Below, in pieces: positions 132 through 64,000 of a stretch of DNA of 64,000 nt. The position numbers and the translations under genes were made by a program. The DNA is taken from the IMG/VR virus record IMGVR_UViG_3300042356_001097; one strand, written 5' to 3'. The notes under the pieces were generated by a model. That model worked only from the letters and a program-made list of their open reading frames with translations. It was not told the origin of the DNA and ran no database searches. Numbering within the stretch: the stretch's first letter is position 1; the number at the start of each line of letters is the position of its first letter. The stretch is from an uncultured virus (IMG/VR IMGVR_UViG_3300042356_001097). Lineage: Duplodnaviria; Heunggongvirae; Uroviricota; Caudoviricetes.

Positions 132-321
132 TTTTCTCCCTTAAACTGAAAGTAAATGACGGGCCTTCCTCGTCATAATCTATAACTAAATCCTTATTAC
201 TTACATTGACATCCAAGAATCTAAGGGTCGGAACCGTTAGCTTTCCATGTTCTTCAAGTAGTGCAACTAGAACTTGATTCATACTAATTGAAGTAATTAA
301 ACCATCAACATCTTCTGTCAT
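106..321 (-). CDS. hypothetical protein (71 aa)
   Basis: ATGA-coupled to the dnaE stop codon. Confidence 0.7.
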   Translation of the reverse strand: MTEDVDGLITSISMNQVLVALLEEHGKLTVPTLRFLDVNVSNKDLVIDYDEEGPSFTFSLREKSAVESDSD

Positions 322-3599: not shown

Positions 3600-3622
3600 T
3601 TAACTCTCCGCCTCTTAACCTA

Positions 3623-4291: not shown

Positions 4292-4343
4292 GTTTCCTCA
4301 TTTCATATAGTTGATGGTGTATATCCATCTTTAGTTTGTTTTT

Positions 4344-5342: not shown

Positions 5343-5569
5343 GCCTTCTTCTTTCCTACGTATACTCCGTATAGTGTCATTAAGAACACCCACGTTTGTC
5401 CGTCAAATTCTATCGAGAAACTAGTGTCTATGTCAAGTACCCTAAGATAACCTTTGCTTCTCATATCGTGAGTAAGCATGCTTTCGTACTGGTATTTTAA
5501 TCTAGGTATACCAGAGTCGTCAGCAAACTCAACCCTTACTTGAAATCTTTTTATCTGTTTGTGGTTCAT
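5270..5569 (-). CDS. hypothetical protein between helicase and primase
   Basis: Likely start MNHKQIK at 5569; overlaps both neighbours. Confidence 0.6.
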   Translation of the reverse strand: MNHKQIKRFQVRVEFADDSGIPRLKYQYESMLTHDMRSKGYLRVLDIDTSFSIEFDGQTWVFLMTLYGVYVGKKKAWLSEGITQGKLIPRNMRPTISSQ

Positions 5570-17349: not shown

Positions 17350-17817
17350 TTATACCTCTTCTAAAGAAAGAGATACATCCCAAAATTCTTGCGGGACTGA
17401 AGCTAGGCTAGATCTAACATTTCTTTTAGATATGCTAAAAGTACATGATGTAAATGAGGCTAGGACAATTTCATCTCTTGCTGTAACAGCGTTATAAGAT
17501 ATTTTAATTTTAAATGTGCCCTTACCTTTATTTAAATAGAATGCTCTTATATCTTCAGCACCCATTCCGCCATCTACTGTTAAGGTGCTATATGTTGGCA
17601 AAGCGTTCCACGCTGTAGATATTTCTTTTTTGTCGGCAATCCAGATTTTTCTCAATGATCCGTTTGACATTCTTTGAGTTTTTTCAATTCTATTTAGATC
17701 AAGGTTAATTGCTGTTCTATTATGCTCAGATACTTTAGTCCAAGTTGGGGTTGCTGCATCTGTTCCTGTATCAAAATACAGAATGGACCCTACTGGTAAA
17801 GTTAAAGGATATCCCAT
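17350..17817 (-). CDS. distal tail (Dit-like) minor tail protein
   Basis: Directly after the tape measure; RMSNGSLR...WDVSLSLEEV. Confidence 0.65.
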   Translation of the reverse strand: MGYPLTLPVGSILYFDTGTDAATPTWTKVSEHNRTAINLDLNRIEKTQRMSNGSLRKIWIADKKEISTAWNALPTYSTLTVDGGMGAEDIRAFYLNKGKGTFKIKISYNAVTARDEIVLASFTSCTFSISKRNVRSSLASVPQEFWDVSLSLEEV

Positions 17818-23800: not shown

Positions 23801-26800
23801 AATCTTTAAATAGCCTATCAACAAAATCTTTTCCGCCAAACTTATCTGGATTATTATTAATATAATCTAGCATGGCTGGAGTAGGTCTAGCGTCGCTAGC
23901 ACCAATTCTTCCAACTGCGTCTGTGTTAAGTTGTCTTCGGTTCTTTGGATCTACATTAGAGTTAGCATCTCTTACAAGCTTAACCGCAGTATTAAATTGT
24001 TTTTGTCTTATCTCTCTCCATACCTTTTTGTCTATAGTTCCATTTTCACCCATTGCTCCGTCAGGTTTAGGTAACATTGCTTGTCTATAGTTTTCGCTTG
24101 CTATTTCAACCGCCTGATCAATAGGTATACCCTTATTGTTTAAAACAGTTGCATCATGCATTACGCTTCTATGAGCTAATTCTTTTTGCCATCCTCCAGG
24201 TCCGCCTGGTTCAAATGCATTTTGATATCTTTCTTGCAAACGTAGAATTTTTTTCCAAGTTCCCCAGTCAGGATTTCCACCTTCAGATAATCCAAATCCA
24301 GTATTGCCTGGACCTCCATTTAATGAATACATTAAAGGCATATCTTTTTGTGCAATATCTGCTGGAATGACAGCCTCTCCTGGTGTCAATACAACAGGAA
24401 CCTGCCCGCCCCTATTCCTATATACTGGTCTTCCACCAAGTAGGTTTTGAATAATTGGCATATTGGCTTCTGTGCCTGCTTTGTTAATTACAAAAGATCC
24501 TTCTTCAGCCGTTGTATGATAAGTATCTGTGTTTCCAGTTCCTGGAACTATACCGCCCTTATTAAATTTAGGCTTTGTTGTTTCAATATTATATCCTGCA
24601 CCTGAAGTTCTAACTCCGCCCAGTGCTCTTGCAATTCTATCCACAAGAGTTTTTGTAGGACCCTTATGAAACATTTCTTTCATGTTAGATTTTCCAGTAG
24701 CTGGATCGACCACTGGTTGGGATGTAAGTGGAACGGTTGTTAAGTTTGCAGTTCTTCCCATAGTGCTTGCAGTTAATGCAGTAGTTTCCGCAAGCATTGC
24801 TTCAACTGTTGCATTTAATTGAAGTATCTTTGCTCTTGCTTGATCTACTGTTATTTTGCTTGCTTGAAGTTGCTTAACAATTGCTGCAGTTTCTTGTGCC
24901 GCTAAAGATGTGATTTCGGTAAACTGTGGAAGCAAGGCTTGGTAAGAATCTGAAAGGCTTGCTGTAACTGTACCTGTTGACATAACTTCTGCTTTTAATA
25001 ATTTAAGTTCCGATTCAGATTGCATTGCAATTGCAGCAGTCATAGCATGCCATTTTGCTGCTTCTTGTGCGACAATTCCTGTTGATATTCCATTTACAGA
25101 AGTTACTCCAGGTATCCTAGGCAGATCTGAATCCATATAAGACTGTGGGTTACTTCCAATTCTAATGTTTACTGGCTTAGCTCCTGGGACTGTTCCAAAG
25201 ATTGTTCCCATTTGTTCTGTAGCTGTTGGTGTAAAGTGAGACATATCTCTTGTGTAAGACTTACCTACTAATGGATTATTCTTATCAACAATTCTTTGTC
25301 CGCCTGGTGTTCCCGCTGATATTACTGACCCTGCAACTGTTGAAATTCCTGGTTGCACTGCAACTTTTGCTGAGTTTGCTTTTATTTCAAGATTATCAAA
25401 TGATGCTGCAAGAGTGTTTATTGCATTTGTTAATACAACTGTTGCCTCTGTGTCTGAATAGAATGATGTAGCAAGGCCTTTTGCCGCAGCGTCTGCTGCC
25501 ATAATTTCTGGTGTTAGAAGTTTAAATCCTTGACCACCTCTAGCTAATTGTCTTAGATGAAAAATTCCCTTGATAACATATCCAATAAAGTTACCCATTA
25601 CACCAGCCAACATAATAAGAGGTCCAGATACTGCGGTTATTCCTCCTAGTACATTTAGGAATGTCTTTACTGGCTGAGGAAGCTTCTGGAAGAATTTAAT
25701 AATTCCATCTACTACTTCTAAAACCTTTGTGCTAATTGTTAAAAATTGATTTCCTACTGCTGCAAGATCTGCTTGAACTGAAGCAAGGGCTCTCTTAAAT
25801 TTACCAGAGGCTGACTCTGTCATCATTCCTAATTCTCGGGATGATATGTTTGCAAGATCTGTTGCACTTGCCTTCATGAGATCCATTACTTGAAGTGTCT
25901 GAGATCCTTCTTTTCCTAAGTTTTCAAATAGGGCAGACATTCTTGCATACTGGAACTTACCAAATAGCTGCTCAATTGCTCTTGACTTGCTTAACGGATC
26001 TAAATTATCTAATGCGCTCTGCAGTTCAACAATTGTTGCTGTTAAGTTACCTGCGTTAGATGTTACAATTTGATCAATGTTTATTCCAAAGCCCGTAAAC
26101 ATTTCCTTGGCAACCTTTGTTGGGTTAATAAGAGAAGCCATTGCTGACTTGATTGCGTTAGCACCTTCTGATGCGTTTACTCCGCCCTCTTTCATTGCAG
26201 TTAAATACAATGCTAAATCTTTTACGTCTCCACCTAGTGACTGTACTACTGGGCCTGCTTTAGGAATTGCTTCAACTAAATCCGCAAGGCTTGTTGAGGT
26301 TTGGTTTTCAACTGCGTTAAGGAAGTCAATTGATTGCGTTAATTCATCTGTACTGGACTTAAATGCATTTTGAATAGCAAGAGTTGCCTTCATTGCTTCT
26401 TGTCTATCAACTTCTCCAAGCACTGCAAGTCTTGATGTTTCTTTTGTTGCCTTGAGTAGCGCCTCGCCCTGTTGCCCTGTTGCGGCTAAATCTGCAGCAA
26501 GTGCGATTGTATCTTTGAATGCAATACCATATGACCCTGCAATTTCTCTTGCAGTGTCCGAAACATCTTTTCTTACTTTTGCAAGCTCTGTTGCAGATAC
26601 GGCAGATAGACCACCATAAACCTTTGTTAGTCTTACTAACTCTTGATCTGCTTCTCTAAACGCTTTTTGTGCAGCCATTCCAAATGCTGCTAAAGGTACT
26701 GTTAGTCCTACTGTTAACTGACGACCAGCCCACTGAGTATTTTTACCCCAGTTAATAAGTTGATTGGATCCATCAAGCATAACCTTATTCATAATGGCTA

Positions 26801-27272
26801 GCTCTTGTCTTGCAATTGCTGTTCTATTTTTTACTTCATCAAGGCCTTTTGCAACCATTACGTTGTACTGCATTAAGCCCTGTGCGTTTTTACCAATAGG
26901 TTGGATGATGGCCTGCTCCATCATTACCTGTTGTTTTGCAAGATCTCTAACTAAAGTGCTTGTTTTTCTTGTATGCCCCTGCCAGGTCTGGAAGTAGTTG
27001 TTTAGCTTTAGTTGACCTCTGTCTAGGTTTCTACCAAACTTTTCTACATCTGAAGTAAGGGATACGAAGTGTTGCGAGAACTGACCTGTTGATGTAAGCG
27101 TTGTTGCAAACGCTTTATTCATTACTGCAATTTGATTTGCAAGCTTGGCGTTAGTTCCCGCTGTAACTTCTTGTAATTTTAAGAGTTGGGCAGTAGTCGC
27201 AGCCAGTTGGGTTCTTAAGCCCGTAAAGTCTGCGTTGGCGGTAATATTAGTGGTGATTAAATTATCTGCCAT
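17817..27272 (-). CDS. tape measure protein with inserted cargo domains (3151 aa)
   Basis: Follows the tail chaperones; N-terminal TMP core (GLTVPL, ENQTSTSL, EGGVNASEGANA), TM-like segments and GGxVxGPG repeats. Confidence 0.92.
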   Translation of the reverse strand: MADNLITTNITANADFTGLRTQLAATTAQLLKLQEVTAGTNAKLANQIAVMNKAFATTLTSTGQFSQHFVSLTSDVEKFGRNLDRGQLKLNNYFQTWQGHTRKTSTLVRDLAKQQVMMEQAIIQPIGKNAQGLMQYNVMVAKGLDEVKNRTAIARQELAIMNKVMLDGSNQLINWGKNTQWAGRQLTVGLTVPLAAFGMAAQKAFREADQELVRLTKVYGGLSAVSATELAKVRKDVSDTAREIAGSYGIAFKDTIALAADLAATGQQGEALLKATKETSRLAVLGEVDRQEAMKATLAIQNAFKSSTDELTQSIDFLNAVENQTSTSLADLVEAIPKAGPVVQSLGGDVKDLALYLTAMKEGGVNASEGANAIKSAMASLINPTKVAKEMFTGFGINIDQIVTSNAGNLTATIVELQSALDNLDPLSKSRAIEQLFGKFQYARMSALFENLGKEGSQTLQVMDLMKASATDLANISSRELGMMTESASGKFKRALASVQADLAAVGNQFLTISTKVLEVVDGIIKFFQKLPQPVKTFLNVLGGITAVSGPLIMLAGVMGNFIGYVIKGIFHLRQLARGGQGFKLLTPEIMAADAAAKGLATSFYSDTEATVVLTNAINTLAASFDNLEIKANSAKVAVQPGISTVAGSVISAGTPGGQRIVDKNNPLVGKSYTRDMSHFTPTATEQMGTIFGTVPGAKPVNIRIGSNPQSYMDSDLPRIPGVTSVNGISTGIVAQEAAKWHAMTAAIAMQSESELKLLKAEVMSTGTVTASLSDSYQALLPQFTEITSLAAQETAAIVKQLQASKITVDQARAKILQLNATVEAMLAETTALTASTMGRTANLTTVPLTSQPVVDPATGKSNMKEMFHKGPTKTLVDRIARALGGVRTSGAGYNIETTKPKFNKGGIVPGTGNTDTYHTTAEEGSFVINKAGTEANMPIIQNLLGGRPVYRNRGGQVPVVLTPGEAVIPADIAQKDMPLMYSLNGGPGNTGFGLSEGGNPDWGTWKKILRLQERYQNAFEPGGPGGWQKELAHRSVMHDATVLNNKGIPIDQAVEIASENYRQAMLPKPDGAMGENGTIDKKVWREIRQKQFNTAVKLVRDANSNVDPKNRRQLNTDAVGRIGASDARPTPAMLDYINNNPDKFGGKDFVDRLFKDLGFEKKSGKWVIDKYGKVSATNLHSTHTSPDAKWGYKSAGNFGQAFWGEADLNTAANDVRRALSIKGQRSFSYFPDEVLMTDKAIALQDRSWLKRFGTTVPQAILDRRKGIISLPQLFKLMRRGVASKSLGFGQIAKTANKGGEIEGRFAQGGEIPGKFAQRLFGGGKAMFLGMPKTIKQVEAQRAARAAMEKADQAVKNSRYSKDQVTTYDEKLQSDDKGHSFPVSGIGGIYSRNGEKFFVKPVVSEKRALAESRFNEITNDLENGLKAPNQRVVVIKDPTDPAGRRKVLALESKYDTDFANMPDTFDEDTYFKQLSLSALRGDKDLARGNLGGNRVADGGTSGVFNTASGDSDYSATMPSFKHQAFVNLLGVKGSNTKKFFAEATSDIPKGMTADQYHQRMLDEIENVLPRLKQTISRFDLNPEETVVYNAMIQRLSDARRENYRDLHALHSSIEITPKKQMTPAAIAKMIAADELKRRQKGHAASLSDNDFKNDSNGFNIGGMIGNVLKGRAMHRIGAGFGPTGAPKPSMYESAPWGVNSLSIEMADKLFANTGLRKHTQKLFYDKFAAALAKEKPYGYVKMPDGKLKNGLEPDVLDSVIRSAASDLIGDRNIIKQLSPIDKDILRNKYLNWDSKKDTPLTESLKKIIFGLEKREMGGPVNSGQPYIVGEKGPELFVPRNSGGIVPSNKYGIAQGYNMGGMIKMMLMQMLGAYGGQAAGKASGIPGGDFIGMMLGSMLGMGGSGFGGGAKAPMTSKGKLTAPIGATKALEGVTVNGKDLMVLTKYGERLEKASLEGGKFAKMGAFAAKSLTRLNLIVGAGSLAIGIAINRYKAHQESMRLNALGYGMTAEQAEKAGLKFTNFNDKIKEAIANAKALKERNTLLYESMQGSGTPINVTIEEYKKLKKEVKDNYSDQVLLINKTSADEQEALAIRLKEQLIAMGVSAEEASKKIYTMYASSEFASIASKVTVGSKGKFNEIKDTATAAASALESLNAAMATDRDPTEQANQLNTALMALSTDVEKRQADAVKKERALATKEGRYFSSGDEKQAKLKAEEEAIEAINKDVQSQAVLTREVVDEMAKIDPSIRQIVSEQDTALSLWQKTRIQVKGYTGDLRNLTAAQTNDLYQLQIALGKVIESANRAKGGALEKQYAKLDRDKQRQAAYERAAKGQKVADQISDREKMSALQKQIDLNNKLADARIKALTAAKEEGDIAREIAKKQAEYDAAIATGNTAGAQQASLDMEGLQSQLQFNAQVKNEENARDVKNAPLLKQIEAMQKKQQKLSDNAAIAGEKLGDLTKSIATQESAIDAVNSSMLDYQIKLSSMEPAERKKWEASRVAREQLAAIGDAAQKAGIKIDGLKDIDLGARLMKNLESGLGSVKTIVTNGEVTIMVGKDAFKPGKGGDGSYGNPFQGGSASVALGEKLGVPIRETITEKGWDTSFGPTSDREIVKKYAKQQDFAKDTQFTLTNKDGSVAQFKVVDDKFNVQLQKITPAEKKAMGGQVNNYDNGGGVSGPGTKTSDSIPAMLSDGEWVIKADSVEKAKKEFGSSFFDDLNAGKFHEGGKVGHKHGSSSPTMPNPFGMGMEWFGKTLSSAANSVVKNVLGFDITTPFSKKSKTEFLSMALLPVGGGAGKGISSSVPKVAGAVSHLTPEMKSFGMADIDAKAMQALSKMDLSSIKIPETGISFNPSSAKAALEGLKEGVTSSSTWEIIQAQRETLLKKKYPKIDFSDVTKFNEYYAKEFYDLLPDEAIKLFKGVRGTIGDAWRTGQKDLGTYFSTNPHIAALYSAMIGKAKLGEELPMFGIDKKISELKNFLGEGAIRNGSAQGSMEFPQVLGGDDLLKMLPSIYSLPGQVYGQMFGATAKSLKEIKNLWPSGFASGGYVNPTYSAKMSVPSFDSGINSVPVDMLAMIHKNEAVVPANMNPFNPNANNATMGGATYNITNNINGYDGDLNQLSRMVTQQTVTAIKSMDSRAASALGPKMNVGIS

Positions 27273-40692: not shown

Positions 40693-41769
40693 CTAAAAGA
40701 ATATATATAAATCGCCAGCTGCAGTGCCAGTTGGTGGCGTTCCAGATGTGTTATAGAATATTTTATTTGAGTTTGCAGTATTTGTTCCGTTTGAATATGC
40801 TGTAGTTGCAAGGTTTATATTTGCACCGAGTGCTACTGGGGCGTTGTTAATTGATATTGATGAGTTTACAAGCATAGCATTAGTAATTGATCCTGGTGAT
40901 GGGGTTCCGACTGGTCCGTCCGCTCCAGTGTCGCCTTTAGGTCCCTGAATACCTTGTATACCTTGTGTGCCCTGTGCGCCTGTGTTACCAGTTAAGCCTT
41001 GTATTCCCTGAATACCTTGTTCTCCCGTGTCACCTTTTGGTCCTTGGATACCTTGTGGACCTAAATTAGAAACTGTAATAGAGCCAGCCATTGATGAGTG
41101 GTATTCGCAAGCATAATAAAGTTGAGGGGCATTAAATGGAACTTCAAATATAATTGTTCCATTATCCCGTGTTCCTGAAGATAATGTTACTCCAGTAGAA
41201 TAAACATTTCCTGCGCTATATGCACCTGAAACTGTTTGAATCCAAAACGGATGTCCGACTGCATTAACATTAATTACATATCTATGCCCCCGAATAAAAG
41301 ATAAAGTTGGATTAGCAGAACCATTAATTGTATATGAACCAGATCCCGAGTTTGTAACGGCTAAAGTTATTCCGCCTGAAGCTCCAGTTGCACCAGTGTC
41401 TCCAGTATCTCCTTTAGGACCTTGAATACCTTGTGGGCCTTCTGGGCCAACGATCTGGCCAGCGGATGTCCAAGATGTGCCGCCCCATATATATAGATCT
41501 CCATCGGACTGTACAATTCTTGCATCGTTTGAGCTGTTGCCAGTTGTTGGTAGGGCAGCTACATTTACTACTGATGCTTTAACATTAATAGATGTTCCTT
41601 GTGGCCCTACAGGCCCTACAGGCCCTTGTGGACCCACTTCTCCTTGAGGTCCCTGAGCACCTGTTGTAATTCTTTGAAGGGTCCATGCAATTCCGTCCCA
41701 AATCCATGTGCTTCCACCAGCGGTGAATAATTGATTCAACGATGGGCTATTTGGAAAATCGATTGCCAT
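40693..41769 (-). CDS. collagen-like fibre with cupredoxin-like domain
   Basis: MAIDFPNSP...W.WDG..W; G-X-Y repeats; GHPF...YYACEYHSSMAG; C-terminal GDLYI. Confidence 0.75.
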   Translation of the reverse strand: MAIDFPNSPSLNQLFTAGGSTWIWDGIAWTLQRITTGAQGPQGEVGPQGPVGPVGPQGTSINVKASVVNVAALPTTGNSSNDARIVQSDGDLYIWGGTSWTSAGQIVGPEGPQGIQGPKGDTGDTGATGASGGITLAVTNSGSGSYTINGSANPTLSFIRGHRYVINVNAVGHPFWIQTVSGAYSAGNVYSTGVTLSSGTRDNGTIIFEVPFNAPQLYYACEYHSSMAGSITVSNLGPQGIQGPKGDTGEQGIQGIQGLTGNTGAQGTQGIQGIQGPKGDTGADGPVGTPSPGSITNAMLVNSSISINNAPVALGANINLATTAYSNGTNTANSNKIFYNTSGTPPTGTAAGDLYIFF

Positions 41770-42005
41770 TATATCTCCCTTATTCCAGCTATTGCTTTTG
41801 CTTCGGCTTCTGTTAAGCCTAAAGAGGTTAGCTTGTCTATAGCAGACTGTAAGTTGTCAACAACCGATTGGTCGGCAACTGGAATCTGCGAAAGAATTTC
41901 ATCTACCTGAATAGAGACCTCTTCATTTACTGATATTTCTGCCTCTGTATACTCACGTATTGTTGTCTCACCAGTCTCGTAATTAAATTCTATAATATCG
42001 CTCAT
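41769..42005 (-). CDS. small fibre-associated chaperone-like protein
   Basis: N.ETGETTIREYT.AE...AIDKL.SLGLT..EA; TAATG-coupled start at 42005. Confidence 0.6.
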   Translation of the reverse strand: MSDIIEFNYETGETTIREYTEAEISVNEEVSIQVDEILSQIPVADQSVVDNLQSAIDKLTSLGLTEAEAKAIAGIREI

Positions 42006-44311
42006 TATTGTGCTCCCCACAAAACCCAAGTTCCACTTGAATAAGATGCTCCATCATTTGTAGCGGCAACTATTGAAGTAACCTTTGCGGATCCCGTATA
42101 AACTCCTGCAAATGTACCCATTCCAGAACTGTTCGCATCTGACCACTTTCCACCAGAAGATCCATAAAATGATATCCCAGATGTTGTATTTGCACCATCT
42201 ATGTAAACATATCCTGAAGCATTTGGTGTTCCTAAAACATTTCCAACGCTTCCAGCATTTGTTCCTTTGAACGACCAATTTGTTAATGCTGGTATTGAAG
42301 AGCTATTATATGCAACAGAGTATATAAACTCATGGTTAGTTGAGGCATTATTTAATCTTATAATAGGGATAGTAAAAGCACTGCCTGAATAAACTCCGCT
42401 CCACACTAGTAAATATTTATTATAACCGCTTAGCCCAGTAAAGGAAACAGTGGTGCCAGAATTTGAAGTAACAGTACCTATTTTTGTATAACCTGAAGGA
42501 GATCCTGGTTTTGTAGAAGATGTCCAGTCTATTCCTAGTCCTGGAATTCTAAATCTGTCTATAGCGTCATTGCCAAGTGTTATCTCATTTGAAACTGTTG
42601 CTGATGATGGGTTTGACAAGTTGCCCAAAATAATATTATTATCTCCAGTAGTTAATGAATTTCCTGCTGCTCTTCCTATTGCTGTGTTAAAGGATCCATG
42701 AACAAGATCTAATGTACCAGGACCTATACCTATGTTGTAATTACCAGATTTGTCATATGGAATATCTTCTGGAAGTCCAGACATTGATGTATTACCGATT
42801 GCTATGTTATTGGAACCAGTTTCTATTGCAAACCCAGCAAGAACTCCCATTGCAATGTTATTGGATCCAGTGCTTATTCTAGATAGCGATGACATTAAAG
42901 CTAAGTTTTGAGTACCTGTTGTAACCAAAGTCATGCTTGTATTTGGCACTGAAGGTGTTAATGAAATATTATTGTTTCCTAATTTACTTACATACTGGCT
43001 TGTACCCGCTGGTCCTACATCTCCAGTGTCACCTTTTACACCTTGAATTCCCTGTGCGCCCTGTGGGCCAGTATTGCCAGTTAAACCAGTAGGCCCTTGT
43101 ATTCCCTGTATGCCTTGCTCTCCAGTATCGCCTTTGTCACCCTTGAGGCCCTGAATGCCTTGAATACCTTGATTTCCTGTATCACCTTTAGGTCCTTGGA
43201 TACCTTGTGGACCTTGTGGTCCAACAATCTGTCCTGCTGAAGTCCAAGATGTACCATCCCAAATATAAAGATCACCATCTGCTTCTACAATTCTTGCATC
43301 GTTTACAACGTTTCCTGTTGAAGGCAATGCTGCAACAGTTAAAGAAGATGCTTTAAGATTTATAGCAACTCCTTGCGGGCCTTGAATTCCCTGATCTCCT
43401 GTATCGCCTTTAGGTCCTTGGGGGCCAGACAATGAAGATCCAGTTTCTACCCAGTAAGAGTCGTAGTATGTATAACTTCTTCCGTTGTCTGAATTAAACC
43501 AGGCTTGTCCATTTACTGGATTTGCAGGAGGAGTTGCGGCTGTAATAGAAAAAGTTGCTTTGCTTCCTTCATTTCCTTGATCACCCTTAAGGCCTTGCAA
43601 ACCTTGTAAACCTTGTATGCCTTGAATTCCTTGTAGGCCTTGCAATCCTGTGTTACCTTGTGGACCAACTGGCCCCTGCTCACCTTGATCGCCTTTGTCG
43701 CCCTTAAGTCCTTGTATTCCCTGCAAACCTTGTGGACCTGTTGTTCCTGTTGGTCCTGCTGGGCCTTGAAGAGCTCCTGCATCAAACCATGAACTTGTTA
43801 CTGTATCCCAAACCATAAGTACGCCAGTTGAAAGAATTAACCAAGCATCGCCTGCGGCTCCAACTAAATTAGCTGAAGTAAATGCAGATGGTGTTGCATA
43901 GTTTCCAAGAATTGTTAATGCTGTTCCTGTATCACCTTTAACGCCTTGTAAGCCTTGTGGACCTTGCAAGCCTTGTATACCCTGTGGACCCTGTTCACCT
44001 GTGTCACCTTTAGGTCCTTGCAAACCTGTGTCACCCTTAACGCCAGGGTTTCCTTGCGGTCCTGGGACAGTACTTGCTGCTCCTGTGTTTCCCTGTAAAC
44101 CTGTTAAGCCTGTATCACCTTTAGGGCCTTGAATACCTTGTGGGCCTTGTGCACCTTGTGGACCCGCTGGACCTTGTGGTCCTGTAGGTCCTGGATTGTT
44201 TGTTAAATAATTATCTATGTCTGTTGCTAAATAGCCAAGGTCTCTTGGGACATCGGGCGACATGTCTAATGTCGGATATCTGAATACTTTAGGTGTTGTA
44301 TTTCCTGGCAT
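42005..44311 (-). CDS. collagen-like tail fibre/adhesin
   Basis: Long GPQG/GDTG repeats; YadA-head-like TGSNNIAIG repeats; beta-rich tip domain. Confidence 0.8.
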
Positions 44312-56508: not shown

Positions 56509-57126
56509 TTAGAAAATAAAACTTGTTGCCATAATTGTACCATTTATCTGTGCCAAAGATGATGTTAGTGCATATTTTGGATAATAAATACCTAGATTAA
56601 GTAATGAATCTAATTCATAGGCTGAAACTCTTCTTTCAATGTCCGCCACAACTACATCTCCAATTGGACCAATAGGTCCTTGTGGTCCCGCTGGTCCTGC
56701 ATTTCCCTGAATACCTTGAGGTCCTCGTACGTTACCTTGTAATACCCAAGTAGTTGTTGATGCGCTATAAACGTAATACTCTCCAGTATTTAAATTTATA
56801 AAGTTATCGCCTTCAATTAAATTTGTTAATCCCGCATTTTGTGGAATAGATTGGGCTGTGTATGTCTTTGTTCCTCTTGTACCTGGAACACCCGCTGGGC
56901 CTGTAACTGATGCGCCTTGTGGAATTGAAAAGTTAAAAACAGCATTTGTTGCTGTGCCTGAATTTGTTACTGTTGCGTTTGCACCTGCTGCAACTGTTGT
57001 TACTGTTCCTACAGATACGGCTGCGGCAGTTCCTGCTGGTCCTTGAGGGCCAGTGGCTCCCGTTGGGCCAGGTCGTGATCCTGCAACGACTACCCACTCA
57101 GTTCCGTTATAGCGTTTTAATGACAT
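56509..57126 (-). CDS. short collagen-like fibre protein
   Basis: G-X-Y repeats; VTNSGTATNAVFNFSIPQG; TATAAT at 57146-57151. Confidence 0.7.
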   Translation of the reverse strand: MSLKRYNGTEWVVVAGSRPGPTGATGPQGPAGTAAAVSVGTVTTVAAGANATVTNSGTATNAVFNFSIPQGASVTGPAGVPGTRGTKTYTAQSIPQNAGLTNLIEGDNFINLNTGEYYVYSASTTTWVLQGNVRGPQGIQGNAGPAGPQGPIGPIGDVVVADIERRVSAYELDSLLNLGIYYPKYALTSSLAQINGTIMATSFIF

Positions 57127-57165
57127 ATTTGATTACCTCTCCACTATTATACAACATATCTTTTA

Positions 57166-59436
57166 TTAAACCCCAGCCCAAATTAACGTTTCCGAATCGA
57201 AGGTTGGGAATATCTTTATCCATTGTCCCGCAGCTGCCACATATAAAGAAGCCTCTGATGACACGTATGCTATCATTCCGCCATGCAAAGATGCTGCTGG
57301 CAAACTAGCAAAGTTTGTTATTTGTGCAGCATTGTTTTTAAACAAATCAGAATAAGTTATTTCACCCTCTTCTGTTGTTAAGTCTAACCAAAACTCTGTT
57401 TGCTGTGGATTTGGAGGAGTTGTTGAAGACAAAATAGATTGACCACTTGTGTCATCTAAATCAACCCAGAAATCTCCTTCAACCGTAGTATATGCAGGAG
57501 GCTCTTCATCTGCGTATATTAAAGGAAGATCTGGTTCATCTGTGTCAATCCACAGAGTATCCATTCCATAAGTTCCTTCAGCTGGAGGATTAGGTCCAGC
57601 AAAAACAAATTCAGTAGATCCTGCGTCATCGTCAACATCTATCCAAAGATCTCCTGCTGTTGTTGCTCCAGATGGTGGTGCAATTAATCCGACAAAGAAT
57701 GTGCTTGGAGGAAGAGAGGTATCTGTTGGGATTAATGTTAATCCTTCACCTCCACCGCCGCCTCCTTGAATATCTTGCCATAGCAATCCGTCATACACCT
57801 TTAGTTTATTTAAGGCTTTATTGTAATAAATTTGTCCATGTACTGGTGTCAATGGGGCGGCATCAAGACCAATAATAATTCCGTTAGTAAAAGTATTCTT
57901 TGATGTCCATGTATTAGTAGTAGATAAAGATAAGTCTGTAGATACATATTCCCATGTGGAGCTTAATGCATTCCAAACCTTTAAGGACCTTGTATTGCCG
58001 CTTCTATACTCATCGGTATCAAACCAGAACTGGCCATCTATAGGGCTTAAAGGTGCAGTAGGAGACATTTTAGCAGTAGATGGAGGAATGTACGCTTCCA
58101 GGATCATCTTGTTTGCTTCGTCATCATAAGTTACAGAAATATTAGGATTAGTTCCATGTGCAAATAGTGGTCCTATTGCGTCTTGAACTTGTTCTTGTGT
58201 TAATTGAGCTACTGCTACAAAGTTAATCTTTCCCGTTACATCATCATAAGTTGCAGTTAAATTTGTGTGTGTTCCAGATGTTATTAGTCCTGCCGCTACA
58301 TCTTGAATTTTCTCGTCTATATCTAATTGAGTTAATGGAACCTTTCCATTTTCATCAAGTGTTGCAATTCCGTCTGCTACCCCTACTTCTGATAAAGGGA
58401 CATATGTTGTAGCAGTATTACTTCCAAGTGCTGTGATGGCGGCATCTGTATATGTCTTTGCATTTTGTGTAGCGCCAGCTTTTGCTGTTTGAACAAAGGC
58501 GGTTGTGGCAATTGTTGTCGAATTGTCATCTGAAGATTGAGTTGGAGCTGTTGGCAGTCCAGTAAATACTGGAGAAGCTAGAGGGGCTTTAAGAGAAAGA
58601 GCGTTGGTTATGGTTGTTACAAAATTTGCATCATCCCCAATTGCGGCAGCAATTTCATTTAGAGTATCTAGAACTGCTGGGGCTGAGTCAATAAGATTGG
58701 ATATTGCTGTATTTACATATGTCCGATCTGCAATAACGGTAGTATCTACTGCCAGGGTTATTGTATTAGCGACATCGTCATAAGTCTTTGTTATTCCATT
58801 ACCCGCCGTTAAAGATGTAGCAATTGCGTCCATGACCTCTTCGTCGTCATAATTTGCGCTTAAGCTTAGCTTTGCGGTTGTATCATCATATGAGACGGTT
58901 ATATTATAGTGGGTTCCATCTGTAATTAATTTTGCGGCTACGTCTTGAATTCTCTCATCGATATCAAGCTGGGATTGAGGAACAAACCCATTTACCAATG
59001 TGGCAATAACTGATGTATCTACTGCTAAGGTAATTGTGTTAGCAACGTCATTATAAGTTTTTGTGATTCCTGTGCCTGCTGTTAAAGATGTTGCAATTGC
59101 ATCCATGACTTCTTCGTCATCATATGTAGCGGTTAAGCTTAGTGAGTTTGCAACATCATCATAAGCAACGGTTATATTGCCGTGGGTTCCTGCGGCCAAT
59201 GCGGCAGCGATTGTGTCTTGCGCCATTTCATTGGTATATATTTTAGATATTAAGTCCCGAACCTTATAGTCTATGGTTGAGGTATCTGTAGAATTATCAA
59301 CACCAAGTTTGGCCTCTAAGGCCTCAATTGCATCGTTGGCATTTGAATGCTGGGCAGAATGGGATACAAACTCAACAGAATCAGTAGCTGCTGGATTTAA
59401 CAGTTGATCTAGTGTTGTAGGGAATGTAGTTGCCAT
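57166..59436 (-). CDS. repeat-rich fibre protein
   Basis: MATTFPTTLD; duplicated YDDEEVMDAIATSLTAG; LIDSAP..LDTLNEIAAAI; GDxWxD repeats. Confidence 0.75.
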   Translation of the reverse strand: MATTFPTTLDQLLNPAATDSVEFVSHSAQHSNANDAIEALEAKLGVDNSTDTSTIDYKVRDLISKIYTNEMAQDTIAAALAAGTHGNITVAYDDVANSLSLTATYDDEEVMDAIATSLTAGTGITKTYNDVANTITLAVDTSVIATLVNGFVPQSQLDIDERIQDVAAKLITDGTHYNITVSYDDTTAKLSLSANYDDEEVMDAIATSLTAGNGITKTYDDVANTITLAVDTTVIADRTYVNTAISNLIDSAPAVLDTLNEIAAAIGDDANFVTTITNALSLKAPLASPVFTGLPTAPTQSSDDNSTTIATTAFVQTAKAGATQNAKTYTDAAITALGSNTATTYVPLSEVGVADGIATLDENGKVPLTQLDIDEKIQDVAAGLITSGTHTNLTATYDDVTGKINFVAVAQLTQEQVQDAIGPLFAHGTNPNISVTYDDEANKMILEAYIPPSTAKMSPTAPLSPIDGQFWFDTDEYRSGNTRSLKVWNALSSTWEYVSTDLSLSTTNTWTSKNTFTNGIIIGLDAAPLTPVHGQIYYNKALNKLKVYDGLLWQDIQGGGGGGEGLTLIPTDTSLPPSTFFVGLIAPPSGATTAGDLWIDVDDDAGSTEFVFAGPNPPAEGTYGMDTLWIDTDEPDLPLIYADEEPPAYTTVEGDFWVDLDDTSGQSILSSTTPPNPQQTEFWLDLTTEEGEITYSDLFKNNAAQITNFASLPAASLHGGMIAYVSSEASLYVAAAGQWIKIFPTFDSETLIWAGV

Positions 59437-59449
59437 ATCTTATATTATA
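59437..59449 (-). promoter_or_regulatory. -10 box, leaderless
   Basis: TATAAT, then 7 nt to the ATG; no SD. Confidence 0.5.
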
Positions 59450-59457
59450 CCCCTTGC

Positions 59458-60198
59458 TTAGTTATAGTTCTTGCGGTTCCAATACTTCTTTTTGTAATAC
59501 CCATCGGAACCCTTTGAGTGGCTTTTAATGTCAACTGTATAACGAGCTTCAAGTATTTTACTAATCTTCATGACCCAAGAATCTCTTTTGTATGGGAGTA
59601 GTTGAGCTATTGGAGTTCCTTTTGGAATAACACCTTCAAAATCTTCTTTTAAAAAAAACGGGATATTGCCAGATGGAACCCAACCATCGCTGTCAATAAC
59701 TCCCGACAGCGTTGTAAATGGCAAATCAAGTCTATTAAAGGGATGTGTTACAAGTACAGAATATCCTCTCGGAACTTTCCATCCCCACTTTCCGCTCCAA
59801 ACAAAATGATTTTGCATATGCCCTGGTGGTCTTGGTATAGTAGATCCACTTGAACCTTTTCTTTCATTTACTAGTCTGCTAAAAATTTGATTATCTTTAA
59901 GAGCATGGTTATGCGAAGTTCTTTTTTTATTAGGCTCAAATGATCCATCTTGTTTTATTTTGCCATCTTCAATAACAACAAAGCCATCTTCTCTTGATAT
60001 CTTTAAATCATCGATAGTCGTTAAGGCGTAGCCAGTCAGCATTACATCCAGAAATGGTACACATGTTTTTAATCCTGCAGACTTTTTATCATCATAGGTT
60101 TCTCCATCTTTATACCATTGAGGTATGTGATTTTTCATAGGAGAAGGCTCAAGCATGTCTACCATGTCTGGATAGGCCACAAACTTAATTTTTTTCAT
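59458..60198 (-). CDS. uncharacterised protein, possibly dUTPase-like fold
   Basis: PQWYK, KTCVPFLD, P.GYS.L.THP.NR, KGTPIAQ..P.KR..W; the fold guess is from memory. Confidence 0.55.
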   Translation of the reverse strand: MKKIKFVAYPDMVDMLEPSPMKNHIPQWYKDGETYDDKKSAGLKTCVPFLDVMLTGYALTTIDDLKISREDGFVVIEDGKIKQDGSFEPNKKRTSHNHALKDNQIFSRLVNERKGSSGSTIPRPPGHMQNHFVWSGKWGWKVPRGYSVLVTHPFNRLDLPFTTLSGVIDSDGWVPSGNIPFFLKEDFEGVIPKGTPIAQLLPYKRDSWVMKISKILEARYTVDIKSHSKGSDGYYKKKYWNRKNYN

Positions 60199-60206
60199 TT
60201 ATGCCC

Positions 60207-60479
60207 CTAAGCTGGTGGTGTAAATGTTGTTCCGTCGTATGCCCAGTCTTGGCCTATTGCAACTTGTGAAATAAGCTCGCCTTCTACACGATCTGGAAAT
60301 GTTATATCTGTAATGTCAACAATTGTTGGATTGCTCAAGATAATAGCCCACATTCTTTCGTCTGTAGCCAGGGTCTGAACAACTTTGCCATCAATAACAT
60401 ATGCTAACTTTTTAATATTCTCTGCTGGCACTGCAACAGGAACATCTTGTGTGGCTAACCACTCTTCATATACTGTCAT
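60207..60479 (-). CDS. small chaperone-like protein
   Basis: ATGA-coupled start MTVYEEW; LAYVIDGKV...W.YDG..F. Confidence 0.65.
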   Translation of the reverse strand: MTVYEEWLATQDVPVAVPAENIKKLAYVIDGKVVQTLATDERMWAIILSNPTIVDITDITFPDRVEGELISQVAIGQDWAYDGTTFTPPA

Positions 60480-60718
60480 ATTTTTTCCTCCTCTATTTTT
60501 GTTTGTCCCCATTTTCCAATAGGGCATTCTGCATTTGGTAGCTTTGTTTTTGCCGTCATAAGGCAACCACATTTTTTGCATTGGCTAGTAGTTTTTATAA
60601 AAAAGGTACAACCTTTACAAATCTCAAGTCTTTGATCTGCCGTTAAAGTATCTACACGGCCTATTTTTTTATTATACAGATCCCAGGGCCTAGCTGGTCT
60701 TTCAAACGGATCAGCCAT
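60476..60718 (-). CDS. Cys-motif small protein (DUF6171-like)
   Basis: RLEICKGC...CKKCGC.M.AK..L..AECP.GKW. Confidence 0.7.
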   Translation of the reverse strand: MADPFERPARPWDLYNKKIGRVDTLTADQRLEICKGCTFFIKTTSQCKKCGCLMTAKTKLPNAECPIGKWGQTKIEEEKI

Positions 60719-61109
60719 TTTTGTTCCATTCTTCTAGTGGTATTGGATCTATTTCTTTGATTTCAAAAAAATCTTTTTCGTCTTCGTTGTATATCCAATT
60801 TTTTGAATTTAAGTCTAATTTATTTTTTTGCTCATGATTAATTTCAATAAAAATTGGTCCCATTTTAAGCAAATTACCAAACTTTGGGTTTGTTGTCATA
60901 ATGTCTTCCACTATCATGGATGTTGGGTCTAATATGGCAAGGTGCATTCCGAGCTTGGACTGATCTGGAATAAACTCATGATCTTTTGGAACCTTGTATC
61001 CTATTTTTAAATTGTTCCTTAAATACTTATTGGCATGTGTTTTTATATATACACGAATATCTCTTAAATAGTCTTTAAGGCTTTGAGTAAAACTAAGTTT
61101 AGTATTCAT
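60711..61109 (-). CDS. small protein, probable paralog of 60207-60479
   Basis: LAILD...VEDIMTT...P.FIEI...W.Y....F. Confidence 0.6.
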   Translation of the reverse strand: MNTKLSFTQSLKDYLRDIRVYIKTHANKYLRNNLKIGYKVPKDHEFIPDQSKLGMHLAILDPTSMIVEDIMTTNPKFGNLLKMGPIFIEINHEQKNKLDLNSKNWIYNEDEKDFFEIKEIDPIPLEEWNKNG

Positions 61110-62456
61110 TTAATTTACCCTAAATTCATCTATTGTGTATCCTTGGCTTGCGTTTGAAGCTCTTGAAATTATACCATGATCTTTTGACTTTTGTCCAGTA
61201 TTTGTTGTAGTTAGGTCTGATCCAACTTGGGAAGAATAATTTACATCTGAATAAGCTTGAGCTGTAACACTATTGCCATCTGTGGTCACCTTAATGCCAG
61301 CAATTGCTGTAGTTGAATTGCTTGTTGAGGATATAACTGTTTCTGAACCGCCTTCTTTTTTAATTAAATCTATTTTATGATGGTCTGCACAGTTGCAATT
61401 ATAAGTGTAGGATGAAGCACATCCGCAAGATGCATTTGGTCCATAGGAATATCCGTCGCAGTATTGGCACTGATTATATGCTCCACAAACTGTGCATGAA
61501 GTATATCCTGTACAATATTGACATGAATTATTTGCAGCACAAACTGTACAGCTTGTGTAAGATGTACAGCATGACTGTTGTGAATATCCTGTACAAACTG
61601 TACAACTTCCATATGCAACACATTGTTGGCAGCTACCGTACACTGCACAATATGATCCCGAGCATTCGCTGTATGAAGAGCATGTTGTGCATGTTCCATA
61701 ACTAAAGCATAATGTTACTGCACAAAATGTTGGCTGGCCACAAACAACTCCGCCTTTGTATGAATTATAAACATATGCGGCACAGCAAAAATTACCATAG
61801 TATGTATAGTACTCTGTACAACAACTACTTGTCGTATAGCCAGTGCAGCATGTATAGTAAAATGGAACACTTGCTATGCAGCACTCATAATTTGAATAAG
61901 CAACACAGCATGTTTGTGTTCCATATGAGGAGCATACGGTACATGTTCCATATCCATTGCAGCAACTTGTTGTAGTATATGAAGCACATCCGCAACTTCC
62001 GTCTGGTCCATAATTGTATTGGTTGCAGCATGTAGTCTGAGTATATGAAGCACAACCACAAGATGCATTAGACCCATAGGCGTATGAGCTACAATAAGAA
62101 CAGCTATTGTACTGTCCGCATGCTGAACAAGTTTGACAAATATTTGTTGTATTTTTTACTACCGCCCAATAGTTCCCAGAGTCTGTTACCCAAAAAGCTG
62201 GGCCTACACCCGATGCTGGATTTTTTGCTTTAATACTTGCATTTGTAGATGAAAATGTTGTTGAAATTAATGAACCTAATGCAACAGATGTTCCTTTTCC
62301 TGCAGCAATTGTCCAACCAGCAACTACATGCTTCCATTTTGCGGAAGTCAATCCTGCATTTACTAGCGTCAGTCTACCAAAATCTTCTACAAGAGAAAGC
62401 AATGCTTTTAGCCTTGAGACGGATGCGCTATGTCTTCTTCTGGGTCCTCTTGGCAT
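61110..62456 (-). CDS. beta-sandwich protein with a 250-aa, 50-Cys insertion (putative fibre tip)
   Basis: TAATG-coupled start MPRG at 62456; Cys-free flanks GVGPAFWVTDSGNYWAV and KIDLIK...HGII...IDEF. Confidence 0.75.
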   Translation of the reverse strand: MPRGPRRRHSASVSRLKALLSLVEDFGRLTLVNAGLTSAKWKHVVAGWTIAAGKGTSVALGSLISTTFSSTNASIKAKNPASGVGPAFWVTDSGNYWAVVKNTTNICQTCSACGQYNSCSYCSSYAYGSNASCGCASYTQTTCCNQYNYGPDGSCGCASYTTTSCCNGYGTCTVCSSYGTQTCCVAYSNYECCIASVPFYYTCCTGYTTSSCCTEYYTYYGNFCCAAYVYNSYKGGVVCGQPTFCAVTLCFSYGTCTTCSSYSECSGSYCAVYGSCQQCVAYGSCTVCTGYSQQSCCTSYTSCTVCAANNSCQYCTGYTSCTVCGAYNQCQYCDGYSYGPNASCGCASSYTYNCNCADHHKIDLIKKEGGSETVISSTSNSTTAIAGIKVTTDGNSVTAQAYSDVNYSSQVGSDLTTTNTGQKSKDHGIISRASNASQGYTIDEFRVN

Positions 62457-63769
62457 TATGCAGTTGTATCTCCTGTAACCAACCAGGAGTTTGCTGCTCT
62501 TTTTTCTAACATAATCGTGCTCCACTGAACTCTTGATTTAAATTGAGAATCTGTTCCCTGCATTGTTACCGCTGCATCTTTTGTTATAGTGACTTGCCCA
62601 GTTCCGATTTGTCTGACTTCAACCATTGATCCAATTGGCCATCCTGCATCTTGGGTATCATTTGGAATTGTAATTGTGCAAGCAACGCTGCATTCAAGAA
62701 GGGTGTTTTTATCTGTTGCAGAACTAATTGTCCGTGTTGCAGATGATACTGGAATATAAGTAATCAAGGCTTTTGTATTATCAGAGGTATTGTCTACATT
62801 TGAAAGACCAACCATGTCTTTTGTGATTCCGCCTACCGTTCCAGTAAAGGTTGGTGAAGCAATTGGGGCTTTATTACCTAGAGCGGTAGTAATAGTTGCT
62901 GCGTATGAAGCATCATCATTTATTGCTGCCGCAAGTTCATTTAAAGTGTTTAATGTTTCTGGGGCAGAATCTAAAAGATTTGATACTGCTGTAGTAACAT
63001 AAGACTGTGTAGCAAAATCTCCATCTGTTAATGCTGCATTAAATTCAGCCAGGGTTCCACTAAGAGTATTTCCTCCTACTGATATAATAAGTCTCGTTCC
63101 GCCACTAGTTGTTACTATTCCTGATACATATCCTATTCCAGAATTTACTACAGAAATAACTCCTTCTGCGCTAATGCTTATTCTACCGCCCCGATCAAGA
63201 CCTGCCTGATAAATTGCTATATCGCTTTGCCCAAAAAATCCAGATATGTTATCGTATTGAGCAATTGATGTAATCCCAGTTCCAAGACCAATTGTTTTGT
63301 TTGTTAGAGTTTGAGCTAAAGTATTTCTTGTAATTTCTGCTGGTATTTCAGAATCTGGGATTTTACCCGTTTCATCAAGTGAGGCAACTCCGTCTGCATT
63401 TCCAACAATACTAAGAGGTACATAGCTTGCTGCTGACGTGCTACCTAAACCAGAAACGGCGGTATCGACATAAGTCTTATTAGCAATAGTGCTATCAACT
63501 GCAAGGGTAATTGTATTTGCAGTATCGTTATAACTTTTTGTTATTCCTGTTCCAGCTGTGATTGCAGATTCAACTGCATCTTGAGCAAGCTCTGAAAGTT
63601 CGCTTGGCAAAATATTAATATATGGAAGAGATGTCCACAAGCTTGTGCCATTGCCAACTTTTAATTTATTTAATGTTAAATCTAGTCCTAGTTCACCAGA
63701 TTCTAAAATTTTAGTAGATGAATTCCATTGGGTAGTTGTGCCTCTTCTTATTCTTATTCTAGATGCCAT
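62456..63769 (-). CDS. fibre protein with Mtd N-terminal-like domain and C-terminal adaptor
   Basis: RIRIRRGTTTQW...LESGELG...KVGNG..W..LPY; APETLNTLNELAAA; TIP...PIG..QIG.GQVT...W.V.GD. Confidence 0.75.
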   Translation of the reverse strand: MASRIRIRRGTTTQWNSSTKILESGELGLDLTLNKLKVGNGTSLWTSLPYINILPSELSELAQDAVESAITAGTGITKSYNDTANTITLAVDSTIANKTYVDTAVSGLGSTSAASYVPLSIVGNADGVASLDETGKIPDSEIPAEITRNTLAQTLTNKTIGLGTGITSIAQYDNISGFFGQSDIAIYQAGLDRGGRISISAEGVISVVNSGIGYVSGIVTTSGGTRLIISVGGNTLSGTLAEFNAALTDGDFATQSYVTTAVSNLLDSAPETLNTLNELAAAINDDASYAATITTALGNKAPIASPTFTGTVGGITKDMVGLSNVDNTSDNTKALITYIPVSSATRTISSATDKNTLLECSVACTITIPNDTQDAGWPIGSMVEVRQIGTGQVTITKDAAVTMQGTDSQFKSRVQWSTIMLEKRAANSWLVTGDTTA

Positions 63770-64000
63770 TTTCTATCATCACAACCTTTCCCTCAAGACA
63801 ACAATTGTCTCCTCCGCTAAGAGTTTCAATTGCCATGTTGTAAGAATGCTCAAGAAAATCTTCTCTTCCAGTAGCCCAATTAATATTAAGTAGTTTTACT
63901 GTTTTATTTTCAGAAATGTTTTTAATAGTAAGATTTAGTAAAGGAGATGTTTCACTATCCTCTACTTCCCATTCCCAATTCCCTGTAGTTTCTATTGTCA
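63759..64000 (-). CDS. hypothetical protein, 5' end at the window edge
   Basis: Hand-translated open frame TIETTGNWEWEVED...DNCCLEGKVVMIENGI*. Confidence 0.55.
   Translation of the reverse strand, partial: TIETTGNWEWEVEDSETSPLLNLTIKNISENKTVKLLNINWATGREDFLEHSYNMAIETLSGGDNCCLEGKVVMIENGI

Follow-up and report, generated by a model that had tools for sequence, protein, structure and literature searches.

The stretch of DNA analysed here, hereafter the window, is the 64,000-nucleotide record IMGVR_UViG_3300042356_001097 of an uncultured tailed virus (IMG/VR; Caudoviricetes), and its minus strand carries a gene for a 448-amino-acid (aa) protein, P0002, in which two Cys-free flanks enclose an insert built around 50 cysteines. 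The original prediction, read from the letters of the window, had described a mirror-symmetric hairpin of 250 codons with 25 cysteines on either side of a central loop, and translation of positions 61389-62138 on the minus strand agrees: the 250-residue insert begins and ends with Cys, holds 50 of them, and stands between 106 and 92 Cys-free residues. The two sets of 25 Cys flank the 13-residue Cys-free loop AAYVYNSYKGGVV, with 119 residues in the outbound arm and 118 in the return arm. The parts of the gene are as follows.

61110..62456, minus strand: gene for the 448-aa protein P0002, defined by its open reading frame (ORF) and start; stop codon included
62139..62456, minus strand: N-terminal flank, aa 1-106, Cys-free; short helix and first half of a beta-sandwich
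61782..62138, minus strand: outbound arm, aa 107-225, Cys 1-25; AlphaFold2 (AF2) strands E96-231
61743..61781, minus strand: tip loop, aa 226-238, AAYVYNSYKGGVV; AF2 turn at aa 232-235
61389..61742, minus strand: return arm, aa 239-356, Cys 26-50; AF2 strands E236-368
62127..62138, minus strand: base clamp, outbound side, C107-x2-C110; at least 90% conserved in an 86-sequence alignment
61389..61397, minus strand: base clamp, return side, C354-x-C356; at least 90% conserved in the same alignment
61113..61388, minus strand: C-terminal flank, aa 357-448, Cys-free, second half of the beta-sandwich; AF2 confidence (predicted local distance difference test, pLDDT) 91-97, and fold matches

The likely start codon of P0002 is the ATG at 62456, which overlaps the TAA stop of the upstream gene (TAATG), and the homologues share this start Met in the alignment. 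The helix of the N-terminal flank (aa 7-15) is the conserved segment SRLKALLSL, and this flank has invariant columns in the alignment of homologues. The outbound arm consists predominantly of CC-x7 units together with two copies of a CxYC-x10-CGC-x7 module, and the return arm predominantly of CxxC-x5 units together with one copy of the same module. The tip-loop motif Y.Y..YKGG is kept within the subfamily, and the four cysteines of the base clamp are the only ones that family member P0071 has. By composition the insert is 20% C, 15% Y, 14% S, 12% T and 10% G; His is absent from its 250 residues, and six of them are charged. The repeats in the insert DNA are all direct, namely a 77-nucleotide module present three times (two outbound, one return) and a 27-nucleotide tandem repeat; inverted repeats were looked for in the insert DNA and none was found, so it is the protein and not its DNA that has the mirror pattern. 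Four other ORFs of 67-109 aa overlap the insert (61412-61705 and 61712-61975 on the plus strand, 61370-61699 and 61874-62077 on the minus strand); with their high content of His, Met and Leu they resemble by-products of the Cys and Tyr codons rather than genes.

Mirrored cysteine spacing in P0002 and its relatives

When Cys i of P0002 is set opposite Cys 51-i, the gaps between successive cysteines face each other according to simple rules, all of which hold as they had been formulated from the sequence. A gap of 0 lies opposite a gap of 5 in 8/8 cases and a gap of 1 opposite 5 in 3/4, the sole exception being the outermost interval (2 against 1); a gap of 2 of the TV, QQ, TT or SA type lies opposite 7 in 7/7 cases, CxYC lies opposite a 10-residue linker in 3/3, and the 9- and 10-residue linkers lie opposite the two CxxxxC units. 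Facing gaps differ by exactly 5 in 16 of the 24 pairs, a number reached in none of 20,000 shuffles of all gaps and in none of 20,000 permutations of the arm-2 gaps within short and long classes, and with P=0.0007 when the two-gap units of arm 2 were permuted; shuffled spacings thus do not give equal symmetry. Cumulative register mismatch, a cruder statistic, was not significant under the two stricter of these nulls (P=0.10 and 0.22).

Relatives of P0002 comprise 52 proteins of similar length among clusters at 90% identity and 102 representatives with E<=0.001 among clusters at 50% identity. Their flanks are conserved, and the middle part varies from about 60 to about 390 residues. The number of insert cysteines is even in 127 of the 129 full-length-like members, and the lengths of the two arms, split at the Cys midpoint, correlate with r=0.96 over 3-196 residues, a correlation that is partly circular because the Cys count itself sets the midpoint. 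Gap strings come closer to palindromes than their shuffles do at p<=0.05 in 45 of the 77 representatives and at p<=0.01 in 30, and the mirror comparison of gaps was better than the direct one in 64 of these 77, worse in 7 and tied in 6. On plain equality P0002 itself is anti-symmetric, with short gaps opposite long ones. When the tip motif was used as an independent landmark, Cys counts before and after it were equal in 52/52 distinct close relatives, which represent nine architectures from 14+14 to 25+25 (two more sequences without the motif pattern were left out). Gains and losses among the homologues are thus two-sided rather than confined to one arm.

Which cysteines change together can be seen in subfamily 1, where 26 sequences were compared with P0002. 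All Cys substitutions are paired and their indices add up to 51, that is (10,41), (14,37), (18,33), (20,31) and (22,29), and so do those of a deletion, (15,36); the pair (14,37) is lost again on the long backbone, in L036/L037. In the 408-aa forms, deletion of a 4-Cys block is matched by that of a 4-Cys block on the other arm, with indices that are ambiguous among the repeats. Subfamily 2 shows the same behavior with 36 cysteines: the indices of two substitution pairs, (6,31) and (12,25), add up to N+1=37, and Cys losses are balanced between the arms in 6/6 architectures. In P0023-25 a switch from CC to CxxC on one arm is accompanied by a switch from CxxC to CC on the other.

The spacing rule extends beyond P0002. 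Over 825 steps in 88 proteins the differences between facing gaps peak at 0 (23%), +/-1 (11-13%) and +/-5 (11.4% and 7.4%), with troughs at 2-4 and 6-8, unlike within-arm shuffles. The shortest linker has five residues, the third of which after the Cys is Tyr (C-x-x-Y), and longer linkers open with the same C-x-x-Y; of 250 five-residue gaps 90% have Tyr at position 3, as do 89% of 159 gaps of seven residues. In members with a single Cys per unit, the residue positions of nested partners have a constant sum (406 six times in P0051, 480 six times in P0089 and 422 seven times in P0091), as a regular antiparallel register requires. Long Cys-free arms of matched length also occur, for example 91 against 91 residues in P0111, along with other matched long gaps, and the two-arm design is therefore independent of Cys. 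The Cys-free or nearly Cys-free arms of P0111, P0118, P0140 and P0071 consist of the repeats YNPTGGGNS, NYGITGGQNAR, PPSYYAG and GTNPPPGGG, and such Gly/Pro-rich units may form structures of the polyproline-II or polyglycine-II type.

Flanks and arms are both under purifying selection, with ratios of non-synonymous to synonymous substitution rates (dN/dS) of 0.07-0.31 and 0.10-0.38, respectively. In several pairs of sequences both dN and dS are far higher in the arms than in the flanks (dS 0.95 against 0.18 for L003 and L010), and these higher rates, which alignment of the repeats may inflate, suggest that inserts are exchanged as cassettes. The original prediction had proposed to check whether the tip loop is hypervariable, and it is not: pairwise identity averages 0.74-0.75 in the flanks, 0.40-0.43 at the non-Cys positions of the arms and 0.53 in the tip, and the tip is therefore not the variable part.

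Predicted structure and putative bonding of the stalk

An AF2 model of P0002 built with an 86-sequence alignment has a mean pLDDT of 83.9 and shows a single hairpin (E96-231, turn 232-235, E236-368). Its pLDDT exceeds 90 in the flanks (90-98 from aa 21) and is 81-90 over most of the stalk, with weak stretches at 148-159 and 307-314. The ends of the strands suggest a register of about 463 near the base and of 466-467 farther out, expressed as the sum of facing positions.

Could the insert instead be a row of local Cys modules, such as a granulin-like stack, a rod of the type seen in tumour necrosis factor receptors or epidermal growth factor-like repeats, or an antifreeze-type beta-helix, so that its mirror is a by-product of tandem repetition? 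The arms are indeed tandem repeats of nine codons, the CxYC-x10-CGC-x7 module has the same orientation on both of them, and the gap strings of P0002 score better in direct comparison (45) than for plain mirror equality (123). The spacings also recall known modules, CC-x5-8 being that of granulin and CxxxxxC that of beetle antifreeze protein. On the other hand, all seven substitution co-changes of the two close subfamilies cross between the arms at mirrored indices and none lies within an arm, the close relatives keep equal Cys counts on both sides without exception, P0111 has its matched Cys-free arms, and a chain that leaves a domain as a loop, as this insert does, has to come back to it. We regard a row of local modules as very improbable; the AF2 hairpin and the covariation in two subfamilies point to long-range pairing across the arms, as first proposed.

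That the insert is a low-complexity, largely disordered or non-functional expansion, whose symmetry has no structural meaning, seems to us hardly credible. Its composition is extreme, P0002 matches no Pfam, PHROG or NCBIfam family, and AF2 left the insert of P0051 unpredicted. Against this stand the dN/dS of the arms, the conservation of the Cys columns and of Tyr at position 3, strictly two-sided bookkeeping over nine architectures, and the confidence of the AF2 model along most of the stalk of P0002.

The original prediction left the choice between nested disulfides and serial Cys4 metal sites. Its long antiparallel two-arm stalk is supported, mainly by the relatives, and of the two chemistries paired disulfides appear more likely from the sequence comparisons; paired bonds fit better because Cys are lost in twos and because relatives exist with one Cys per arm per unit. 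Even Cys counts, rungs made of a single pair in relatives, the lack of His and the six charged residues of the insert likewise favour disulfides over metal. For a cystine ladder the indices of coupled cysteines should follow i+j=N+1, and they do in 7/7 substitution pairs from two subfamilies, which shows the coupling and not the bond itself. Virion disulfides reportedly occur in phage Milano and in the tail of a siphovirus. They have been demonstrated in Pam3, a freshwater cyanophage (PMC9942802).

Several observations weigh against a ladder of 25 disulfide rungs. In the third subfamily one co-change sums to N+2 instead of N+1, and the alignment of the fourth is too poor for pairing analysis. 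The AF2 model of the distant member P0051 has confident flanks and an unpredicted insert (pLDDT <50 over 126-283, no secondary structure), so the AF2 support for the hairpin comes from one model and concerns the subfamily of P0002. The sums of nested partners in P0002 alternate between 463-464 and 467-468, and a regular two-stranded ribbon, as AF2 draws it, therefore cannot bring all 25 pairs face to face; moreover, all five substitution losses of subfamily 1 belong to the 467-468 set, and the 463-464 set is backed directly only by the (15,36) co-deletion. Phage particles assemble in the reducing cytoplasm, and a Pfam scan of 58 of the 59 non-nested minus-strand ORFs of at least 50 aa in the window, from which the 3151-aa ORF was left out, found none of the thioredoxin, glutaredoxin, DsbA and Erv families. 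Finally, the base cluster CxxC...CxC is nearly invariant and resembles a zinc site.

The last points lead to the alternative in which the cysteines are metal ligands and the facing short motifs (CC, CGC, CxxC) form Cys4 sites for Zn or Fe, about 12 of them stacked as nodes. A shift of the pairing by one Cys places short motifs opposite short ones and long linkers opposite long ones, with matched unit lengths; cytoplasmic assembly in general favours metal sites over disulfides, and the base cluster would suit zinc. The needle of T4 gp37 is built on serial metal sites (PMC6957217). However, four ligands of one site should be lost together, and the seven substitution pairs show losses two at a time, never four; units with a single Cys on each arm, as some relatives have, offer too few ligands for such a site, His is absent from the insert, and adjacent cysteines (CC) chelate metals poorly. 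The short-faces-short nodes were dropped since co-lost partners sum to N+1 and not to the N+2 that such nodes demand, and (15,36) crosses their borders. Metal coordination along the stalk appears to us quite unlikely, although the base cluster may be a zinc site, and serial Cys4 sites are the less favoured of the two staples in the original proposal.

Returning to paired bonds, we favour an irregular ladder in which five extra residues would bulge alternately from the two arms and all 25 pairs would be bonded, because the offset of exactly five equals the length of the shortest C-x-x-Y linker. The 463-464 set spans the whole stalk, beginning with the pair (1,50) at the base and ending with (25,26) at the tip. 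In the other remaining geometry, the ribbon is regular and half of the Cys serve another purpose. The stalk would be about 15-20 nm long as an irregular ladder and about 40 nm long as a regular ribbon.

The alternating register could also arise in a homotrimer, the usual state of fibre proteins, in which three hairpins would form a six-stranded needle with one set of Cys pairs bonded within the chain and the other, offset by five, between chains. A regular ribbon can keep just one of the two sets in register, covariation does not distinguish contacts within a chain from those between chains, and the gp37 needle is such a trimer (PMC6957217). Nevertheless, shifts of +5 and -5 on the same interface would be impossible for a symmetric trimer of regular ribbons; on this geometric reasoning the interchain bonding of the offset set in a symmetric trimer was dropped. 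The nearest concanavalin A (ConA)-like and carbohydrate-binding module (CBM) bodies are not obligate trimers either, and BppU of phage Douge is described as forming homodimers (PMC13033339). We consider the trimer unlikely.

The lectin-like body and its gene neighbourhood

The Cys-free flanks had been taken for one split beta-sandwich, and the AF2 model and its fold matches confirm this. In a structural search with VIA-align the flanks matched ConA-like/CBM sandwiches, with CBM66 (4b1m_A; Z 16.7, root-mean-square deviation 2.8, 151/165 residues aligned) followed by BppU of mycobacteriophage Douge (8zdo_a; Z 14.6), the receptor-binding domain of TM4 gp23 (9n6a_A; Z 14.6), CBM2 of the phage J-1 Dit (Z 12.6) and G7C gp63.1 (Z 10.9). 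In total 119 chains had Z>=8; the top matches listed are mostly lectins, CBMs and glycoside hydrolases. Foldseek gave VIP36 and ERGIC-53 with a probability of 0.9 or more but with E>0.1, and no match to the PDB at E<=0.001; rows for aerolysin pores were dismissed on account of TM scores of 0.04-0.07. We conclude that the flanks form one split ConA-like/CBM-type beta-sandwich, and carbohydrate binding by P0002 is a prediction from this modelled fold. In Douge, CBM-like modules bind mycobacterial glycans and the cell surface, as reported (PMC13033339). The Douge BppU CBM and central fibre, the C-terminal domain of TM4 gp23 and CBM66 share their beta-sandwich fold with the flanks of P0002 (Z 14.6-16.7 over 151-169 aligned residues, at 10-12% sequence identity); unlike P0002, none of them is reported to have a long insertion with a Cys ladder.

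The family, so far uncharacterised, has been seen only in uncultured sequence. A search of PDB sequences with the family profile returned 0 matches at E<=1, tblastn of the whole protein and of each flank found no match among 50,697 GenBank phage records, and megablast of positions 57000-64000 found none. Among 185,579 species genomes a single locus was detected, on a contig of a metagenome-assembled genome (MAG). BFVD contains six family members at E<=3.4e-10, all of them annotated as 'uncharacterized protein, uncultured Caudovirales phage', and matches in the protein atlas belong to unnamed clusters. The relatives that bear names are all called 'hypothetical protein' except two, one of which has a garbled metaclust label; the other, P0046, is annotated as hypothetical and assigned to an actinobacterial MAG.

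Every large ORF of the window is on the minus strand. The gene order around P0002 is a fibre gene, the P0002 gene with its start on the fibre stop codon, a group of conserved companions and a second fibre gene.

62456..63769, minus strand: upstream tail-fibre gene, 437 aa; Pfam Mtd_N at 1.6e-11 and 37 tail/fibre PHROGs
57166..61109, minus strand: downstream companions p132, p80, p124, p246 and a 756-aa fibre protein; synteny in viral loci

Blastp detected a family member in 30 of 35 viral loci, on which the synteny counts rest: a fibre-like ORF ends at the start of the family member in 22/30, p80 lies within 5 kb downstream in 28/30 and p246 within 5 kb downstream in 22/30. The carrier is not the tip of a fibre protein's own chain, as the original prediction had it, and is instead a separate lectin-like protein encoded directly after the fibre gene.

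The companion p80 (60476-60718, minus strand) has 80 aa and six Cys in the pattern CxxC...CxxCxC...C; it matches phrog_13558 at 1.6e-15, and its score against Pfam DUF6171 is 24.7 bits, below the cut-off of 27. It may be a zinc finger or may serve as a dedicated helper in folding or redox chemistry. The 246-aa p246 (59458-60198, minus strand) belongs to phrog_7084, is DUF6065-like according to the protein atlas and is duplicated in several related loci; its relatives in GenBank phages are confined to 49 haloarchaeal tailed viruses, at 32-34% identity. When loci L003, L004, L005 and L010 are compared with L001, the upstream and the large downstream fibre genes are only 46-57% identical and the small genes between the fibre genes 89-99% identical, and such a mosaic of divergent fibre genes and conserved small genes is a pattern typical of host-range modules.

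Elsewhere the window encodes capsid, portal, protease and collagen-like proteins and a replication module. Among portals, those of actinophages are the most similar to the one encoded here, with 55% identity in Streptomyces phages of about 130 kb; the host is probably an aquatic actinobacterium. Collagen triple-helix repeats occur in the fibre region at 40693-44311 and 56509-57126 (both minus strand; Pfam E 7e-15 and 8e-37), and a third fibre-region protein has a weak collagen match. The 3151-aa minus-strand ORF at 17817-27272, between the head-tail genes and another large ORF, may encode a very long tape-measure protein. The replication module (318-6797, minus strand) includes a full-length DNA polymerase III alpha (PHP, NTPase, finger and HHH parts), a Toprim primase and a DnaB-like helicase.

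A probable cysteine-laddered appendage and its nearest known systems

Taken together, we think it fairly probable that P0002 is a receptor-binding or adhesin protein in which a stalk of 25 cross-arm Cys pairs runs out and back from a lectin-like body, with a role in host recognition. One loop of the beta-sandwich would have grown into the 250-residue stalk, whose arms would be held rung by rung from Cys i to Cys 51-i on either side of the 13-residue turn. The rungs would most likely be disulfides that form once the particle reaches oxic water. Between rungs, the facing segments would be equal or exactly five residues apart, five being the length of the shortest linker, and cystines and tyrosines would stand in for an ordinary hydrophobic core. 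The length of the stalk would change through units gained or lost on both arms together, and whole inserts would be swapped between phages. The lectin-like body may attach to the upstream fibre or be made together with it, and P0002 would be part of the virion. There the stalk could serve as a rigid, Tyr-rich probe or spacer, resistant to proteases and shear, that extends the reach or the binding surface of the lectin domain toward the host envelope.

The claim that no phage protein of this architecture had been described holds in part. A literature search on phage cysteine-rich fibres, cystine ladders and nested disulfides found no such ladder described in a phage protein; the tentaclins that it brought up are C-type lectin and immunoglobulin-type proteins and are unrelated (PMC10743442). 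T4 gp37, on the other hand, shares the out-and-back logic. Its needle, D11, is inserted in D10 and holds seven His-coordinated iron atoms on the axis of a homotrimer; it is the nearest topological analogue, an elongated insert in a globular domain in which the chain runs out to a tip and back, with serial colinear cross-links, at the receptor-binding end of the fibre (PMC6957217). The chemistry and the domain that carries the insert differ, and the oligomeric state may differ as well, gp37 having HxH iron motifs and a collar-fold domain, and P0002 putative Cys pairs, a ConA-like domain and an insert without the His that such motifs need. In P0002 the out-and-back insertion is seen in the AF2 hairpin between the sandwich halves and in the two-sided bookkeeping of its relatives. 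No gp37 sequence or fold match appeared among the matches listed in the Foldseek, PDB-profile and structural searches, and the structural matches listed contain no gp37 or gp12 row; neither result excludes a likeness.

Other known systems share single features with P0002. Cystine-ladder hairpin peptides such as the theta-defensins have nested, parallel cross-strand disulfides joining two antiparallel strands, as proposed here; they have two or three rungs in about 18 residues, whereas P0002 has 25 matched pairs in 250 residues, five-residue Tyr-bearing offsets and a place within a 448-aa protein. The ultralong third complementarity-determining region of the bovine antibody heavy chain (CDR H3), to which the stalk had been likened at the outset, is likewise a beta-ribbon stalk that projects a distal element from a beta-sandwich. 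However, its stalk is short and its cysteines lie in the knob, whereas those of P0002 lie in the stalk and the tip is a Cys-free loop of 13 residues; the likeness is therefore limited to the stalk. The gp38 adhesins of the S16/T2 type are encoded by a separate gene directly after the fibre gene and are built from repeats in Gly/Tyr/Ser-rich, variable segments, a setting and make-up similar to those of P0002. They differ in having a polyglycine-II sandwich and no Cys ladder, and no homology between them and P0002 was detected.

We propose only tentatively that the family represents a new architectural class, a modular cystine-ladder rod of tunable length that obeys a fixed 0-or-5 rule and serves phages of aquatic actinobacteria as an exchangeable probe for host recognition. 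If this is true, its 25 rungs would make it by far the longest nested disulfide ladder known, in a family whose arms range from 3 to 196 residues. The 0-or-5 rule and the paired Cys losses lead to precise, testable predictions for disulfide mapping and for the length of the stalk. If the ladder is real, it would be a long, thin and rigid rod that has no hydrophobic core and whose length is set by matched units on two arms, which would interest protein design as a stable, tunable spacer or display scaffold. For phage biology, such a ladder would be a new type of receptor-binding appendage in a large group of uncultured phages of freshwater type, whose hosts are hard to grow.

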